A stretch of DNA of 64,000 nt from a phage: sequence record PZ452589.1; one strand, given 5' to 3'. Shown here piece by piece: positions 4,664 through 40,234 of this stretch. Within the stretch, counting starts at the first letter, position 1. Each line of letters begins with the position of its first letter. Under the pieces are notes generated by a model. The model did no database searches. It had not been told where the DNA came from and saw only the letters and a program-made list of their open reading frames with translations. Made by a program: the position numbers and the translations under genes.

Positions 4664-6078
<1,415 letters not shown>

Positions 6079-34749: not shown

Positions 34750-36078
34750 TCATTTGATTTCCTCTAAATCTTTAGTGTATTCGGTAACTACATCAGTAGT
34801 TTTCCAATATTCGTTTTCTTCTTTCTTAGCTTTAGCTTCTTCAGCAAGTTTCTTTGCTTCGTCGGAAGTCATATGAAAAATATTCATTCCGACTAGTTTA
34901 TCAACATAAGAAGAATACATATCAATTTTAGAAAGTTCTTCGGTCAGTTCTTTGCGAGTTTTACCCTGCACAACAATTTCACCTGAAATTACTTTCTTAA
35001 TGAAATGTGCCTTGGCAAAGGCTAAACGAAATGCTGATTCAGTTTCTTTGATTTTGTTATCAATTCGTTTTTGGACATAAGTTTTACGAACTTCAACAAA
35101 GTCTTTAATTAAATCAACTACGTTATCGTAAACTTGCAGCTTTCCTTTCTCATTAATGACTGTAATATTCTGAGAACGACGCTCAATCAGTCCGAAGTCT
35201 TTCATAATTTTTGCATGGCGTTCTTCTTCATTATCGCTCAAAGAGTATTCTTTTCGGAATTTAACTTTGAATCCAAAACCATGCTCACCACAAGCATCAT
35301 CCCATGTAATGAAGCCTTTATCTTCAAGTGGGTCTAAGATTTTACTCACATAAGTTTCACGATCATACTTATACGGAATCTCAGTGATATGCATTTGAGT
35401 TCGTGAAGTAAACTTATATGTTCCACGAATTTCATATTGCCCATCAATTTCAACGACTTCACCACGAAATTCTGGGAATTCTACCTTCGGTTTAGTTACT
35501 TTCTTTCCTTGAAGAGCTTGCAGTACAGCTTTCTTAACAGAAGAAACACTATGAGGAAGAATGTAAGTTGCATAACCAGTTGCAATACCGGAAACGCCAT
35601 TAAGAAGAACAGTAGGAATAACAGGCAAATAGAAAGCAGGCGGAATGTGTTCTTTATCTTGATGTACCGGAGCATATTCAGTATCTTTATATACGTTATA
35701 GAAATTTTTACTTACACGAGCAAAAATATAACGACTTGCTGCTGCCTTTTGGACAGTACGAGAACCAAAGTTTCCTTGACCGTCTAACAGAGGAAAGTTA
35801 TTATTCCAAGTGTTAGCCATCAAAGCACCTGCGTCTTGCGCAGAGTTTTCACCATGATGATATCCAAGGTCCGCTACACCGCCTGCGATAGAAGCGAGTT
35901 TGTGAAACTTATCTTTATTTCCTCGTGCCAAATCAAGAGCTCGAGCAATAACAAATCGTTGAACTGGCTTAAATCCGTCAATCATATTTGGAATGGCACG
36001 ATTTTCAACCGTGTACATAGCATAAGCCAATGCTTCATTATCAATGATACTTTTTAAATCACGATTATTCAGTTGCAT
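34750..36078 (-). CDS. 52: topoisomerase II medium subunit gp52 (GyrA-like), 442 aa
   Basis: MQLNNRDLKSIIDNEALAYAMYTVENRAIPNMIDGFKPVQRFV.. type IIA topoisomerase A-subunit motifs. Confidence 0.92.
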   Translation of the reverse strand: MQLNNRDLKSIIDNEALAYAMYTVENRAIPNMIDGFKPVQRFVIARALDLARGNKDKFHKLASIAGGVADLGYHHGENSAQDAGALMANTWNNNFPLLDGQGNFGSRTVQKAAASRYIFARVSKNFYNVYKDTEYAPVHQDKEHIPPAFYLPVIPTVLLNGVSGIATGYATYILPHSVSSVKKAVLQALQGKKVTKPKVEFPEFRGEVVEIDGQYEIRGTYKFTSRTQMHITEIPYKYDRETYVSKILDPLEDKGFITWDDACGEHGFGFKVKFRKEYSLSDNEEERHAKIMKDFGLIERRSQNITVINEKGKLQVYDNVVDLIKDFVEVRKTYVQKRIDNKIKETESAFRLAFAKAHFIKKVISGEIVVQGKTRKELTEELSKIDMYSSYVDKLVGMNIFHMTSDEAKKLAEEAKAKKEENEYWKTTDVVTEYTKDLEEIK

Positions 36079-36082
36079 AAAT

Positions 36083-36223
36083 TTACCATACTAGTGAATG
36101 TAGTGCCATAATAACATCAGAAATGAAAAGCACGACTTGAATTAATCCGAACATTATTCCGTAATATAATGCTATCAATAAAATAGCAAGGGCTAATGAA
36201 TAGCCCAAGATTTTCTTAATCAT
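36083..36223 (-). CDS. small membrane peptide, 46 aa (52.1 position)
   Basis: ATG overlaps ac stop (ATGATTAA); hydrophobic; ends 5 nt before gene 52 ATG. Confidence 0.4.
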   Translation of the reverse strand: MIKKILGYSLALAILLIALYYGIMFGLIQVVLFISDVIMALHSLVW

Positions 36224-36374
36224 TAGTAGATAACAACACAAATGTTAAATATGCACACATACCCTGAGCTAAAGCTTGCGAAAACACACTGCTGGCATCA
36301 ATACAGATAGTTAAAACACATGCTACTATCCAACAAATAAATGAAATAACTCCTAATAATTTTGCGATATTCAT
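36216..36374 (-). CDS. ac: Ac acriflavine-sensitivity membrane protein, 52 aa
   Basis: MNIAKLLGVISFICWIVACVLTICIDASS..; small membrane ORF between stp and 52 as in T4. Confidence 0.65.
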   Translation of the reverse strand: MNIAKLLGVISFICWIVACVLTICIDASSVFSQALAQGMCAYLTFVLLSTND

Positions 36375-36381
36375 ATTTTCC

Positions 36382-36462
36382 TCACTGGCGTCCGAAGACG
36401 CCTTTAGTTTTAAGATTATTACGATAGAACTGCATCACGTGTTCGTTGTGGAAATTACTCAT
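36382..36462 (-). CDS. stp: Stp peptide (activator of host PrrC anticodon nuclease), 26 aa
   Basis: translates to [26 protein letters not shown], the T4 Stp sequence as I recall it; contains a C(UUCG)G hairpin near its 3' end. Confidence 0.8.
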
Positions 36463-36920
36463 TAATATGCCTGCAAAACGAATTTAAAATTATCAGCCAA
36501 CATACGGTTCATTTCTTCAAGTGTTTGATACTCAGAATGATGATTACGAGTAAACGCTAAAGCTAACTGTCCTTTTCCAAATCCCGTCGTCAGAGGTTTC
36601 ATCTTAGAAGCAGGCAGATAAAATACTGCGTATGGAACATTGTTATTTGCAATAGTACGTGCAAGCTGAGACCGACGTTGACGAATATGACTTAGAACTG
36701 CACTGAATCCTTGCTTAGAACGCTGATTACCTACATAAAATCGTGCAGACACGCATGGATTACTAAATGGACGACCATCTAATTTACTCACTAAAAAGTA
36801 AAATCCAGGTTTAGATAAAAAGTCTTTATGCGGAGTTCCCAAAAACCATTCACCGTTCTTGATTGTACCAATAACGGTAGCGCCCGCATTATTCAGATCA
36901 GTAGCAGTCATATATTTCAT
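36462..36920 (-). CDS. ndd: Ndd nucleoid disruption protein, 152 aa
   Basis: [33 protein letters not shown]..; start at internal Met with GAGGAAATTAAT SD. Confidence 0.85.
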
Positions 36921-36980
36921 ATTAATTTCCTCTAAATTATTTTCTACTCCAAGGCCGCATGAATACACGCGGCCATTAAA

Positions 36981-37196
36981 TTAATCGTCGCAGTCGACGC
37001 TCAATTCCCAAAACTCTTCTACGGTATAAGTTTCAGTATCATTTTCAATACAGAAACGTTCATTACTGTTATTTGCTAAAGTAGCATTAACTGTCGGTTT
37101 CTCGCTAGTGCTCTTAAGAGGTGAAATACGAATTAACTGATCACCATTATCTAAACAAAAAATTTCACCAACTTTTACATCTTTAAAGATTTTCAT
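36981..37196 (-). CDS. hypothetical protein, 71 aa (ndd.x)
   Basis: ORF; acidic. Confidence 0.5.
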   Translation of the reverse strand: MKIFKDVKVGEIFCLDNGDQLIRISPLKSTSEKPTVNATLANNSNERFCIENDTETYTVEEFWELSVDCDD

Positions 37197-37204
37197 AATT
37201 CACC

Positions 37205-37315
37205 TCAAGGAGTATAAAATCCAAACGCAGTTGTTGACCATCCCATCCAATATGGGAAATTTGCGCCAATGTAAAACATAAGAATATAAAACCAACCGCT
37301 CAGCAAATTCATCAT
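37205..37315 (-). CDS. hydrophobic micro-protein, 36 aa (MMNLLSGWFYILMFYIGANF..)
   Basis: ATG overlaps upstream stop (ATGA); not in ORF track. Confidence 0.35.
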   Translation of the reverse strand: MMNLLSGWFYILMFYIGANFPYWMGWSTTAFGFYTP

Positions 37316-37509
37316 TTTACACCATTCCAAATTGTTTCAACCACGGATTTTAAACCATTTTGATGAATGTCCATTCCAACTACCGCCATCAAATAGATTC
37401 CAACTACAACTGAACCTAAGGCAAAAATCAGCATGAAAATGAATAAAGCCGGAAAAATATTATCGAAAAACCATTCAATAAATGTAAAAGCACTGCGTTT
37501 ACGCTTCAT
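37312..37509 (-). CDS. small membrane protein, 65 aa (MKRKRSAFTFIEWFF..)
   Basis: start at internal Met with GAGGAAAAT SD; two predicted TM helices. Confidence 0.45.
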   Translation of the reverse strand: MKRKRSAFTFIEWFFDNIFPALFIFMLIFALGSVVVGIYLMAVVGMDIHQNGLKSVVETIWNGVK

Positions 37510-37516
37510 ATTTTCC

Positions 37517-37630
37517 TCACATAAATCCAAAGTAAGCATTTAATACATCAATCATTAAAACGATTGGGAATATACTCAAAACTACTAGTATTATAACTAC
37601 ATTCCATATAGCTTTAACAATCTTTTTCAT
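37517..37630 (-). CDS. hydrophobic micro-protein, 37 aa (MKKIVKAIWNVVIILVVLSIF..)
   Basis: GGAGGAACAGAAA SD and own early promoter; track ORF upstream extension overlaps the promoter. Confidence 0.4.
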   Translation of the reverse strand: MKKIVKAIWNVVIILVVLSIFPIVLMIDVLNAYFGFM

Positions 37631-37658
37631 TTTCTGTTCCTCCGTAGTTGATAGGGTA

Positions 37659-37688
37659 ATAATACCACAGAGGAACAGTCTTGTAAAC
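37659..37688 (-). promoter_or_regulatory. early-promoter-like element (GTTTACA-N17-TATTAT)
   Basis: minus-strand GTTTACA 37682-37688, TATTAT 37659-37664. Confidence 0.45.
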
Positions 37689-37873
37689 AACTTTTTTAAA
37701 AATATTCGTAATAAATGTGAATACCAATCACCACTGCCGAAACTTGCGCAACCCACCATGCACAAGCAATAAGTACAGAATTCAAAATTTTCATAATAAC
37801 CTCATTACAAAAGTAAATGTTAAACAAATTACTGGAATACTAATTAACCAAACAAAACACCACCATAGTGAAC

Positions 37874-38146
37874 TCATAGTTCAATCTCAACGATTTTCAT
37901 TTCATTACTATTAATAGCCGCTTTAAGACTATCTGAAAGAATTACATTCCAGTGGTCATTCATATGACCATTAACTAAGCGTGTAATTTCTTCAGGAGTT
38001 GAAAAATAAGGCTGATCGGACTCCCAATGCGATAATCCTAAGCGAGTATAAATCATGCCTTCATCATCGCTAGAATATTCAACTGACACAAACTCATCAG
38101 TTATTTTATGCTTAGCATAATAAAATTTAAATTTCATTTTACTCAA
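37874..38146 (-). CDS. hypothetical protein, 90 aa (ndd.x)
   Basis: ORF; preceded by two further unlisted micro-ORFs (28 and 32 aa, hydrophobic). Confidence 0.5.
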   Translation of the reverse strand: MSKMKFKFYYAKHKITDEFVSVEYSSDDEGMIYTRLGLSHWESDQPYFSTPEEITRLVNGHMNDHWNVILSDSLKAAINSNEMKIVEIEL

Positions 38147-38349
38147 TAATCCGCTAAAAGATCGACGATTGCATCACGAAGACACTTATTCGCAATACGT
38201 TTAAGAGCAATTTCAGTTTCTGGAGCATTTTGAATAATCATTGAATTCAATTCAGCCTCAGCAAACTGAAGTTCTTTAACTAGTTCAGCTTTATATTTCC
38301 CTTGCCCTTTCTTAGCTTTTGCTCGTTTTAATTCAGCTGTAGTAAACAT
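38143..38349 (-). CDS. hypothetical protein, 68 aa (MFTTAELKRAKAKKGQ..)
   Basis: start at internal Met with GGAGAATAAA SD downstream of promoter. Confidence 0.45.
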   Translation of the reverse strand: MFTTAELKRAKAKKGQGKYKAELVKELQFAEAELNSMIIQNAPETEIALKRIANKCLRDAIVDLLADY

Positions 38350-38383
38350 TTTATTCTCCAAATCCGTATCAGTTGATAGTTGT

Positions 38384-38413
38384 ATAGTACCACGGTCCTT
38401 GTGGTATGTAAAC
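38384..38413 (-). promoter_or_regulatory. early-promoter-like element (GTTTACA-N17-TACTAT)
   Basis: minus-strand GTTTACA 38407-38413, TACTAT 38384-38389. Confidence 0.45.
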
Positions 38414-38428
38414 TGTTTTGTGAAATTT

Positions 38429-38986
38429 TTAAATGGAAAGATACCATCCATTGTAGTTGCTTTTTCTTACAACCTTACGAAGGTCTTCTCTGTCACCGAT
38501 GAACTTCGGAGTGTACTGGATGACACCTGGATGAATTTCTTTAGTGTTGAATATAATTATACAGTCAGCGACTTGATGATTTAGAATGGGCCCTAGATTT
38601 ATTCCAGAACCATATGGATACTCTCCGCTGCATCCTGTTGTCACCGAAATCCAACGTGAGTCAGTTTGATGTGTCTTAACTTCTATACGAAGCCCGCAGT
38701 ATTTTGGATGTGCTAAAACATCCCATGCGTATGTGTACGGATCATCGACATCTTCTTGGCCTTTATTGACATATCCACTTAGCCAATCTGCCACAAAAAA
38801 CTCTGCGTACACAGCGATACGACATCTTTCAATAACTTCTATTTTATCCTGGTTCGGATTTTGTTTTAAAGAGTATCTTGCAGTATCAGCAATTTTGGCC
38901 TTCATTTCACTAGTCAAGTCATTGTTTGATAGGGTAAATGACGGAATCTGAAATAGTCTCTGCAAACCCGGATTCGTTTTCTGCAT
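38429..38986 (-). CDS. denB: endonuclease IV, 185 aa
   Basis: 185-aa ORF between ndd region and rIIB as in T4; sequence recalled as DenB. Confidence 0.8.
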   Translation of the reverse strand: MQKTNPGLQRLFQIPSFTLSNNDLTSEMKAKIADTARYSLKQNPNQDKIEVIERCRIAVYAEFFVADWLSGYVNKGQEDVDDPYTYAWDVLAHPKYCGLRIEVKTHQTDSRWISVTTGCSGEYPYGSGINLGPILNHQVADCIIIFNTKEIHPGVIQYTPKFIGDREDLRKVVRKSNYNGWYLSI

Positions 38987-39051
38987 TTAAACTTTCCTTT
39001 TATGTCTGAATCACTGGTATTCATATAATAAATCATAATTTCTCTTAAAAC

Positions 39052-39079
39052 AAAAGGGCCGAAGCCCTTATTTTATTTG
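39052..39079 (-). terminator. C(UUCG)G hairpin with flanking U-runs (bidirectional terminator-like)
   Basis: AAGGGC-UUCG-GCCCUU followed by UUUUGUUUU on minus and TTATTTTATTT on plus. Confidence 0.5.
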
Positions 39080-39267
39080 AATTGTGCAATTCTTTTCTCT
39101 AGACATTCAGCATAAGATTTCATTGAGATAAACTGCGAAAGTAACAGTTCTTGCTCAACTGCATTAACTGTTAGAAACTTTGCGCTTTCTAAAAATTTGC
39201 TCAGTGCATTAATTTTGAGCATTAATTGATCGTATTCTTCTTTTACTCGTGCTTGATAACCTAACAT
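39073..39267 (-). CDS. hypothetical protein, 64 aa (denB.1 position)
   Basis: ORF with AAGGAAAATT SD, flanked on both sides by the same hairpin sequence. Confidence 0.5.
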   Translation of the reverse strand: MLGYQARVKEEYDQLMLKINALSKFLESAKFLTVNAVEQELLLSQFISMKSYAECLEKRIAQFK

Positions 39268-39281
39268 AATTTTCCTTAGTT

Positions 39282-39297
39282 AAGGGCCGAAGCCCTT
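39282..39297 (-). promoter_or_regulatory. intercistronic C(UUCG)G hairpin overlapping rIIB stop codon
   Basis: second copy of AAGGGCCGAAGCCCTTATTT. Confidence 0.4.
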
Positions 39298-40234
39298 ATT
39301 TAAATTGTTCAGTAACGTCTTCAACTACTTCGTATTGGCAGGTACGCATTTTAGCATCGTTGTAATCAATCGGAATTGATACTACATCACGCGGATGTAC
39401 TTTAACTTTTACAACTCGGCTAGTTGAACTGCCAAAGTGACGAATATAAGATTTAGAACACACATGCAGACCGCGAGAACAAGTTTGTGTATCATCGTCA
39501 TTCACACGAGTACGTGGCATTTTAACTACTTTACCAGGGCTGTTATCAAAAGTATTTGAATGACAGTCAAAGTAATTGCTGCGAACTACTTTCCAAGCAT
39601 AGAAGTAACCGTCTTCTGTAATTTCAATATCGTTTGCTACCAAGAAATCAAAGAGTCGAGATACCGCTTTTTGGCTTGGGTTTTCCAACAGATTTTCCAA
39701 GAACGGAAAATAGAATTCAAAGTTTTCGCCTTTTTCCATCGAGTCAAGAATACGATCAACCAAACCAGATCGCAATTCAATATTTTGATAGAACAAGCTT
39801 CCACCTTCAATTCGAACATCACCGGAAATATATTTTTCAACAGCGCGACGAACATTAATTTTTTGTGCCGCTTCTTCCAACTTATCCGCTACAAGCAGAT
39901 TAAGAATTTCCTGGAAGTTTGAATGAGTATTAGGAGTTGCGTTATAAGTTACACCGTCAACAGTAATTGAAATGAATTTTTTAGATGCATTCCAAATAAT
40001 GTCAGATTTAGCAACTGGAGCAATAACTGCATCGCTATTAACTTTAACTGTAATATCACCGCTAATAGTAACTTTAGGGCGTTTAGCTTCTTCAGCATTT
40101 TTCAAAACACGACGGATTGTGTCAACCGATACACCTTGCCAATCAGCCAATTCCTGCTGAGTGTAATTACCACTTGAATACAGTTTAACAATTTCAGCTT
40201 GTTCGTTTTTGGTCAGGCATTTAATATTGTACAT
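39296..40234 (-). CDS. rIIB: rIIB, 312 aa
   Basis: MYNIKCLTKNEQAEIVKLYSSGNYTQQELADWQGVSVDTIRR.. ; length equals T4 rIIB. Confidence 0.92.
   Translation of the reverse strand: MYNIKCLTKNEQAEIVKLYSSGNYTQQELADWQGVSVDTIRRVLKNAEEAKRPKVTISGDITVKVNSDAVIAPVAKSDIIWNASKKFISITVDGVTYNATPNTHSNFQEILNLLVADKLEEAAQKINVRRAVEKYISGDVRIEGGSLFYQNIELRSGLVDRILDSMEKGENFEFYFPFLENLLENPSQKAVSRLFDFLVANDIEITEDGYFYAWKVVRSNYFDCHSNTFDNSPGKVVKMPRTRVNDDDTQTCSRGLHVCSKSYIRHFGSSTSRVVKVKVHPRDVVSIPIDYNDAKMRTCQYEVVEDVTEQFK

Follow-up and report, generated by a model that had tools for sequence, protein, structure and literature searches.

The interval between the topoisomerase gene 52 and denB of T4-like phages holds a run of very short open reading frames (ORFs), which raises the question of whether these micro-ORFs are genes and, if so, what their products do. 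This question was addressed in a 64,000-nucleotide stretch of phage DNA (sequence record PZ452589.1), referred to here as the window, in which the interval spans positions 36083-38349. The ORF listing and its translations showed that the interval is coding on the minus strand, and all features of it described below lie on that strand. A first-pass annotation had proposed a cluster of at least seven early-expressed membrane micro-proteins here, in the neighborhood of ndd, denB, stp, and ac. All the micro-ORFs that it listed exist, all of them on the minus strand, and coding density reaches 91.8% over positions 36083-37877. The phage is a Tequatrovirus (T4-like), and the interval is an accessory early region of this genus located between gene 52 and denB. 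The region matched 578 phage records. The top matches were Tequatroviruses, with 97% identity across 2.7 kb, and annotated Tequatroviruses showed 97-99% DNA identity and the same gene order. The nearest record was phage BW-1 (99.4% identity across the 1.8-kb core), and T4 was 95.8% identical to the locus.

Orthology with T4 genes

The first-pass annotation had suggested a comparison with T4 ndd.1-ndd.6, and orthology was confirmed both by synteny and by PHROG and Pfam families. Aligned by gene order with the annotations of RB14 and T4, the eight micro-ORFs are the orthologs of 52.1, ac, stp, ndd.2, ndd.2a (corresponding to T4's ndd.3 plus ndd.2a), ndd.4, ndd.5, and ndd.6. Every one of them matched a PHROG family over its full length, and three passed the Pfam cut-off: 52.1 (DUF7396), ndd.2a (DUF7248), and stp (PF08133). 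For ndd.2, ndd.4, ndd.5, and ndd.6 the full-length PHROG matches (families 4135, 3098, 5011, and 8851) had E values from 1.6e-17 to 3.9e-26. The corresponding T4 segment (NC_000866, 165209-166996) has the same gene order, strand, overlaps, and lengths, and its proteins are identical or a few residues apart and belong to the same PHROG and Pfam families. T4 differs in that a 1-nt deletion gives "ndd.3" and a truncated "ndd.2a" where the window has an intact 65-aa ndd.2a gene, and T4 lacks two extra non-hydrophobic ORFs that are present here between ndd.6 and denB.

The gene set is thus already known, since it is found in the T4 reference annotation (as predicted membrane proteins), in PHROG, and in Pfam. 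What remains of interest is function: these are compact, conserved, early, non-essential, predicted membrane micro-proteins, and the one phenotype of the block as a whole, loss of phage-induced phospholipid synthesis, is not tied to any one of them. The present analysis adds quantitative evidence for the genes, a correction of the T4 ndd.3/ndd.2a annotation, and a map of the regulatory elements lying within and between these tiny ORFs, which constrains any deletion or recoding of them.

Hydrophobicity and coding evidence

The grand average of hydropathy (GRAVY) of the micro-ORF products was 0.6-1.8. The first-pass description of almost all of them as strongly hydrophobic held for six of the eight, which contain a 19-residue stretch with a mean Kyte-Doolittle value of 2.2-3.05. 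The aromatic-rich ndd.2 is moderately hydrophobic (best stretch 1.17), and Stp is hydrophilic, as the annotation had implied. A basic N-terminus is present in 52.1, ndd.2a, and ndd.4. When ATG-initiated ORFs of at least 26 aa carrying a hydrophobic stretch were counted, six were found on the coding strand and none on the opposite one; 500 dinucleotide shuffles yielded 1.1±1.0 such ORFs (maximum 5), and none of the 500 reached six. The cluster is real and no artefact of composition. Seven of the micro-ORFs are predicted, from hydropathy and structural models, to encode a protein of 28-65 aa that is essentially a single hydrophobic helix.

Selection within the genus was analyzed in an alignment of the window with 15 other Tequatrovirus loci, 92.5-99.4% identical. 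The frames were intact in these 15 phages except for the frameshift in T4 ndd.2a, start-codon shifts in ndd.2, and alignment artefacts at gene boundaries. Pooling the variable sites of the six uncharacterized ORFs gave 51 synonymous and 31 nonsynonymous sites and a dN/dS (omega) of 0.16 (p=5e-16), to be compared with 0.78 and 1.08 for the same pool read in the +1 and +2 frames. Taken singly, dN/dS was significant for ndd.2, ndd.2a, ndd.5, and ndd.6, and weakly so for 52.1.

Conservation beyond the genus was analyzed in seven distant T-even loci (Dhakavirus IME08, UP19, and VR5; phage 212; Mosigvirus ATK47; a Klebsiella phage; and Kanagawavirus CIP9). These diverse relatives were taken from GenBank phage records; an IMG/VR search with Ndd returned 5 loci only, all near-identical Tequatroviruses. 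Using phmmer, homologs of 52.1 were found in all seven loci, of ndd.4 in six, of ndd.6 in four, and of ndd.2 in two; no ndd.2a or ndd.5 was found in the seven. Comparisons across lineages gave pS of 0.34-0.92 and pN of 0.07-0.48, with pN/pS mostly 0.16-0.6 (0.31-0.44 for ndd.4). In 19 of 20 cross-genus comparisons pN was lower than pS, the exception being ndd.6 against CIP9 (pN/pS 1.24). The first-pass annotation had made its proposal depend on whether related phages keep these reading frames, and they do: frames are intact and under purifying selection in the 15 Tequatroviruses, and four of the families recur in other genera. Judged by these substitution patterns, the micro-ORFs are real protein-coding genes under purifying selection. 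The families are narrow, and wherever the source of a member names the protein it is from a T-even phage. There were 12 clusters for 52.1 and only 8 for ndd.2a among 5.8 billion proteins, and six representative clusters for ndd.4 among 1.84 billion (exhaustive representative search).

52.1 overlaps probable regulatory elements

52.1 (36083..36223) encodes 46 aa with one long predicted hydrophobic helix. It matched Pfam DUF7396 with 78.3 bits (cut-off 27) over residues 1-46 of 46 and PHROG 3595 with E=8e-25, and its AlphaFold2 (AF2) model is one helix spanning residues 2-45, with a predicted local distance difference test (pLDDT) score of 97. The gene lies directly upstream of gene 52 and downstream of ac, as it does in the seven distant loci. 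Its 5' half contains two tandem terminator-like hairpins (36170..36206; z=-3.8), 10 nt past the ac stop codon. A hairpin occupies the same position in nine lineages despite their different sequences, and in eight of the nine its stability exceeds that of synonymous recodings (z from -2.4 to -4.0), the control half of the gene giving z of about 0. The 3' half carries a probable counterpart of the gene-52 middle promoter (36101..36132), placed by coordinate transfer from T4 P52, whose start site is 165227, printed as 65227 in the published table of middle promoters (PMC2988021, Table 1). Its parts are a MotA box TGCTTTTCA (36132->36124), a -10 element TATTAT (36113->36108), and a start at about 36101. 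The nucleotide pattern GTGCTTTT.ATTTC.GATG.TAT is nearly invariant in the nine lineages, and VLFISDVI, where conservation of 52.1 is highest, is encoded by the DNA that holds the MotA box and the -10 element.

This arrangement suggested an alternative in which some of the ORFs, chiefly 52.1, would be frames that are open incidentally in regulatory DNA, that is, in the terminator-like hairpin and the gene-52 middle promoter. It would account for RNA structure selected beyond coding needs in the 5' half and for the overlap of VLFISDVI with near-invariant promoter elements; 52.1 also lacks a Shine-Dalgarno (SD) sequence, and within Tequatrovirus one of its off-frames scores as low as the real frame. 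Several observations run counter to it. Frame 0 of 52.1 contains no stop codon in nine lineages, while the other frames contain 5-8 and 1-2, and its length is fixed at 45-46 codons. Between genera pN is well below pS (pS 0.40-0.76, pN 0.07-0.31, pN/pS 0.16-0.53). Residues 6-19 vary in sequence yet remain strongly hydrophobic (GRAVY 2.3-3.2), and synonymous changes occur outside the promoter elements at the conserved residues Y20, Y21, G22, G26, L27, S43, and L44. The other five uncharacterized ORFs showed dN/dS of 0.08-0.38 in the annotated frame only. We consider incidental opening of the frames very improbable; the 52.1 ORF, though overprinted, still looks coding.

Expression, phenotype, and proposed role

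In T4 time-course omics, the transcripts of 52.1, ac, stp, and ndd.2-ndd.6 were all classified as "early" (PMC9697503, Table S2), in line with the first-pass proposal of an early cluster of micro-proteins, whose membrane location is a prediction. In the CRISPRi-ART knockdown scores, stp, ndd, ndd.1-ndd.6, and denB are all "Not Fit" (supplement of PMC11879866); neither the CRISPRi-ART nor the HIDEN-SEQ paper discusses these genes in its main text, and no literature on DUF7248, DUF7396, or the PHROG numbers was found. The T4 deletion sa-delta-9, which removes 52.1 through denB, still gives a yield of 50% of wild type and abolishes the T4-stimulated synthesis of phospholipids, especially phosphatidylglycerol (PMC6071114). 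Its authors noted that several products of the deleted block are predicted to be membrane-located (PMC6071114). According to the T4 literature, then, the micro-genes are transcribed in the first minutes of infection and are dispensable on laboratory Escherichia coli. The only phenotypes mapping to the block are the acridine phenotype of ac, the activation of PrrC by Stp, and the loss of phosphatidylglycerol synthesis in sa-delta-9.

The micro-ORFs probably encode accessory early inner-membrane micro-proteins that adjust functions of the host envelope. They would be transcribed from two sigma-70-type early promoters and from internal MotA-dependent middle promoters, and translated either through an SD of their own or by coupling to termination of the preceding gene. 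After insertion into the inner membrane, each would modulate some protein or process of the host envelope; permeability or efflux, the synthesis of phospholipids, and defense located at the membrane are examples. Such an action would match the "monkey wrench" role suggested for T4 immediate-early genes.

Bacteria possess small inner-membrane regulators of this general form, such as AcrZ acting on AcrB, MgrB on PhoQ, and MgtS on MgtA. The micro-proteins resemble them in size (below about 65 aa), in their single hydrophobic helix, and in conserved polar and aromatic positions that, at the level of prediction, suggest helix-helix contacts. They differ in being phage-encoded and in having no sequence similarity to these regulators. 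Acridines are substrates of efflux pumps, and Ac affects acridine sensitivity. T4 itself has other small membrane proteins, Imm and Sp (superinfection exclusion) and rI (lysis inhibition), of 83-97 aa and with defined phenotypes. They too are early or accessory small envelope proteins that are non-essential in the laboratory; unlike the micro-proteins they are larger and have defined phenotypes, and no PHROG or Pfam match links the micro-ORF families to them.

Several points weigh against the reading of the micro-ORF products as envelope-adjusting proteins. The proteins of 52.1, ac, stp, and ndd.2-ndd.6 are all listed as "NA" in the T4 time-course proteome, in which Ndd and Ndd.1 were detected; the authors gave Ndd.4 (P39249, 5 kDa) as their example of a protein probably missed through its small size (PMC9697503). 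No T4 ribosome-profiling data turned up in a limited literature search. The sa-delta-9 phenotype is mapped only to the deleted block as a whole, and denB or ndd may be its source. Since 52.1 overlaps a selected RNA hairpin and the gene-52 middle promoter, its protein accounts for only a part of the conservation seen. Finally, ndd.4 has only 5 variable sites in Tequatrovirus, and its dN/dS is not significant.

The dispensability of these genes also fits a different role, in which the micro-proteins would have no general function and would be host-range or counter-defense factors, each neutralizing or triggering a membrane-associated abortive-infection or exclusion system. Known defense-related genes lie in the same block, the neighbors Stp (PrrC/EcoprrI) and rIIA/rIIB (RexAB) act in this way, and no fitness effect was seen on laboratory E. 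coli. The gene set is moreover mosaic between genera: ndd.2a and ndd.5 were seen in Tequatrovirus alone, ATK47 has no ndd.4, and a different hydrophobic ORF takes the place of stp in three of the distant loci. Nevertheless, almost all the T-even loci examined have 52.1 and ndd.4, as would rather be expected of a general function; none of the micro-proteins has a known interaction with a defense system; and ndd and 52.1 are unmentioned in the main text of a T4 transposon-screen preprint. We regard a purely counter-defensive role as unlikely.

Short and very hydrophobic helices could also act on the bilayer itself and not on a protein partner, as membrane-damaging peptides of the toxin-like or holin-like depolarizing kind or in superinfection exclusion. 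Many small T4 immediate-early genes are reported to be lethal to the host when cloned (Kutter et al., PMC6071114). The helices nevertheless keep conserved non-aliphatic positions, polar, aromatic, or proline (YYG and VLFISD in 52.1, P and ID in ndd.4, IP..C in ndd.6), and ndd.2a has an invariant soluble tail, features that argue for specific contacts. Nor do the genes look like holins: they are transcribed early in T4, their neighbors are ndd, denB, and gene 52 and not lysis genes, and their products lack the charged C-terminal domain typical of holins. Direct membrane damage thus appears quite improbable.

Within the preferred reading of envelope-adjusting micro-proteins, a more specific proposal can be made, speculative and on balance doubtful. 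One or several of 52.1 and ndd.2-ndd.6 would be the determinant of T4-stimulated phosphatidylglycerol synthesis, acting as single-helix modulators of inner-membrane enzymes or transporters, and devices like the ndd.4 hairpin described below would confine their synthesis to the immediate-early period.

Predicted leader hairpin of ndd.4

ndd.4 (37517..37630; 37 aa; PHROG 3098) encodes the most hydrophobic protein of the set, with a best 19-residue stretch of 3.05. Its homologs in six of the seven distant loci share the pattern K.I.N...VL.I.P..(5 residues)..ID. The spacer between ndd.5 and ndd.4 contains an early-type promoter-like site (37688->37659), with an A-tract and GTTTACA-17-TGgTATTAT, identified by consensus match only. 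The site is kept in all 15 Tequatroviruses and has counterparts in five other lineages. A 15-bp hairpin (37634..37678) is predicted in the leader, in which a 5' arm from within the promoter spacer pairs with the ndd.4 SD as 3' arm. Its folding energy is -23.2 kcal/mol (z=-4.7); RNA starting past the -10 element of the ndd.4 promoter, a start inferred from the promoter consensus, is unstructured (-2.0 kcal/mol).

Among eight distinct sequences, 98.3% of the hairpin pairs are formed. Changes within Tequatrovirus are wobble changes only, and shuffles equal the observed covariation, the distinct sequences being few. The layout recurs in the Dhakavirus-type phages, whose arms are unrelated in sequence (CATCTCCATT / AATGGAGATG). 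They contain one compensatory pair, in phage 212, among four sequences, a level reached by 113 of 500 shuffles. The counterpart in CIP9 has 6 bp. Since covariation statistics are uninformative within a genus, the argument for the hairpin rests on the difference of the arms between genera.

The arrangement suggests that the SD is closed in read-through RNA and open in promoter-proximal RNA, which would restrict translation of ndd.4 to promoter-proximal transcripts. Hairpins that sequester the ribosome-binding site are established for the T4 genes e, soc, 49, and I-TevI (PMC3014915). The ndd.4 device is like these in that the SD is paired in read-through RNA and transcripts from the proximal promoter begin downstream of the 5' arm, and unlike them in that the proximal promoter of ndd.4 looks like a sigma-70 early promoter and not a late one; ndd.4 is absent from the hairpin examples in that review (PMC3014915).

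A further transcription signal lies inside the ndd.4 coding sequence, where coordinate offset from T4 places a probable counterpart of the middle promoter Pndd.3 (37583..37615), with TATAAT at 37595->37590 and a start at about 37583. The T4 start site is 166702 in Table 1 of mapped middle promoters (Hinton, PMC2988021). The motif GGAG occurs in the SD of ndd.4 (37634-37648) and in that of orfB (38355-38362), one of the non-hydrophobic ORFs described at the end. In early mRNAs this motif is cleaved by RegB, an endoribonuclease of T4 (PMC3014915), and the ndd.4 and orfB messages may be RegB targets.

Other translation and transcription signals

The first-pass annotation had assigned an SD to almost every micro-ORF. 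Strong GAGG or GGAGG sequences were found for ac, ndd.2a, ndd.4 (GGAGG), and ndd.5 only; those of 52.1, stp, ndd.2, and ndd.6 are weak or absent. The ATGA overlaps that it described as frequent join ndd.2a to ndd.2, orfA (the other non-hydrophobic ORF) to ndd.6, and ndd.5 to ndd.6; the junctions of ac with 52.1 (8 nt) and of ndd with stp (TAATG) are of other kinds. The starts with a weak or missing SD all overlap the upstream stop codon, which implies translational coupling.

As to the two dedicated early promoters that had been proposed, two sigma-70-type sites are indeed present on the coding strand, both as consensus matches only. Besides the one upstream of ndd.4, a site of the sigma-70/T4-early type is located in the denB-orfB spacer (38412->38384, minus strand; TTTACA-17-TACTAT with TG). 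A leader hairpin was looked for at this denB-proximal promoter and none was found (z=-0.4). An Rfam scan of positions 35900-39300 at E<=1 gave zero matches.

ndd.2a and the T4 gene "ndd.3"

ndd.2a (37312..37509; 65 aa; dN/dS 0.12, p=1e-7) matched Pfam DUF7248 with 71.9 bits (cut-off 27) and PHROG 2401 with E=3.4e-30. The protein carries KRKR at the N-terminus and contains a long hydrophobic helix; its C-terminal tail, NGLKSV.ET.WNG.K, is invariant. It had been described as a two-helix protein; the AF2 model (pLDDT 80) corrects this to a short helix (residues 5-17) plus one long helix (residues 19-64).

The gene is intact, with 65 aa, in 14 of the 15 Tequatroviruses, T4 being the exception. At codon 2 of the T4 gene a 1-nt deletion changes ATGAAGCGT to ATGAACGT, which results in "ndd.3" and a short "ndd.2a" (5049-5129 and 4933-5055 in L003, the locus from the NC_000866 record). 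T4 "ndd.3" is therefore the out-of-frame product and, as judged from this comparison, probably not a real gene; it is listed as a PHROG singleton. The deletion may be a true mutation in the strain that was sequenced, or it may have been introduced by the sequencing. In the Shigella phage Sf25, the 62-aa protein P0007 consists of the N-terminal 31 residues of ndd.4 fused in frame to the C-terminal half of ndd.2a. This fusion carries PF26889 and PF23906, which shows that a newer Pfam release has an ndd.4 family.

Features of ac, stp, ndd.2, ndd.5, and ndd.6

ac (36216..36374), with a GAGG SD, encodes the ortholog of the acridine resistance protein, a hydrophobic protein of 52 aa (PHROG 2501, E=3.7e-25) that differs from T4 Ac only by one additional residue. 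Its predicted role in acridine sensitivity is taken from the gene name in the T4 annotation. The site-count dN/dS was 0.39, and divergent alleles occur in Shfl2, LF73P3, and other genera. Unrelated hydrophobic ORFs occupy the ac slot in several genera.

stp (36382..36462) encodes a hydrophilic protein of 26 aa (PHROG 6763) that matched PF08133 with 75.3 bits (cut-off 25) and is identical in amino acids to T4 Stp; its dN/dS was 0.15. From the T4 annotation, it is predicted to activate host PrrC and act on EcoprrI. The DNA encoding the Stp C-terminus (GVFGRQ), directly before the ac SD, forms a UUCG-tetraloop hairpin GGCGUCUUCGGACGCC (36387..36402; z=-3.4). Of the 15 other Tequatroviruses, 13 have exactly this stem, bov9_1 shows a single mismatch in it, and LF73P3, whose Stp ends in another sequence, lacks the hairpin. 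The position occupied by stp in T4, right after ndd, is taken in VR5, the Klebsiella phage, and CIP9 by a strongly hydrophobic ORF of 57-61 aa (L015 2810-2989, L017 3326-3511, and L018 3330-3503).

ndd.2 (37205..37315; 36 aa, aromatic-rich; PHROG 4135) showed a dN/dS of 0.18 (p=4e-5), and its homologs in the Klebsiella phage and CIP9 have the common motif G.N.(P/A)YW(M/L)G, another case of non-aliphatic positions kept within a helix. ndd.5 (37696..37794; 32 aa, hydrophobic, with a GAGG SD; PHROG 5011) showed a dN/dS of 0.08 (p=5e-4) and was found in Tequatrovirus only, among the loci examined. ndd.6 (37791..37877; 28 aa, hydrophobic; PHROG 8851) showed a dN/dS of 0.11 (p=0.012), and its homologs in UP19, VR5, ATK47, and CIP9 share the motif W...IW...IP..C.

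In T4-derived annotation ndd.2, ndd.2a, ndd.5, and ndd.6 carry outer-membrane or periplasmic labels. Such labels look unfounded on helices of 28-65 aa, and peptides of 28-36 aa are too short for a beta-barrel. A lipobox-like LIAC occurs only in ndd.5 (residues 8-11, Cys11; 37762-37773 in the window), and nothing else seen in these proteins could be grounds for calling one of them a lipoprotein or outer-membrane protein; the IVAC of Ac is not conserved in other genera. Annotation of these genes in public records (L010, L004, and L022) is noisy. 52.1, stp, and ndd.6 are often uncalled, ndd.1 or ndd.4 is mislabeled as "naphthalene 1,2-dioxygenase," and denB.1 as "Rz-like spanin."

Neighboring genes

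Two context genes lie among the micro-ORFs: ndd (36462..36920; 152 aa; dN/dS 0.17), which encodes the nucleoid disruption protein according to the T4 and RB14 annotations, and the ndd.1 ortholog (36981..37196; 71 aa; PHROG 2183; dN/dS 0.12), whose product is soluble and acidic.

The micro-ORFs do not extend over the whole range given in the first-pass annotation, the part at 37874-38349 holding two non-hydrophobic ORFs that it had not described. orfA (37874..38137; 87 aa) is RB14ncORF269c/RB69ORF270c-like by the RB14 annotation and PHROG 2390 (E=1.5e-46), and orfB (38143..38349; 68 aa; PHROG 4535) is RB32ORF266c-like; both precede denB (38429-38986). This segment is polymorphic for insertions and deletions: T4 lacks both ORFs, orfA is kept in Mosigvirus and Dhakavirus, and orfB is present in only 4 of the 16 Tequatrovirus sequences (the window, RB14, bov9_1, and LF73P3).

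Finally, two hairpins were observed between ndd.1 and ndd on the minus strand (36953-36999; -26.4 kcal/mol, z=-3.7). In the second of them (GGCCGCGUG...UGCGGCC), stem variation among relatives mostly preserves pairing.

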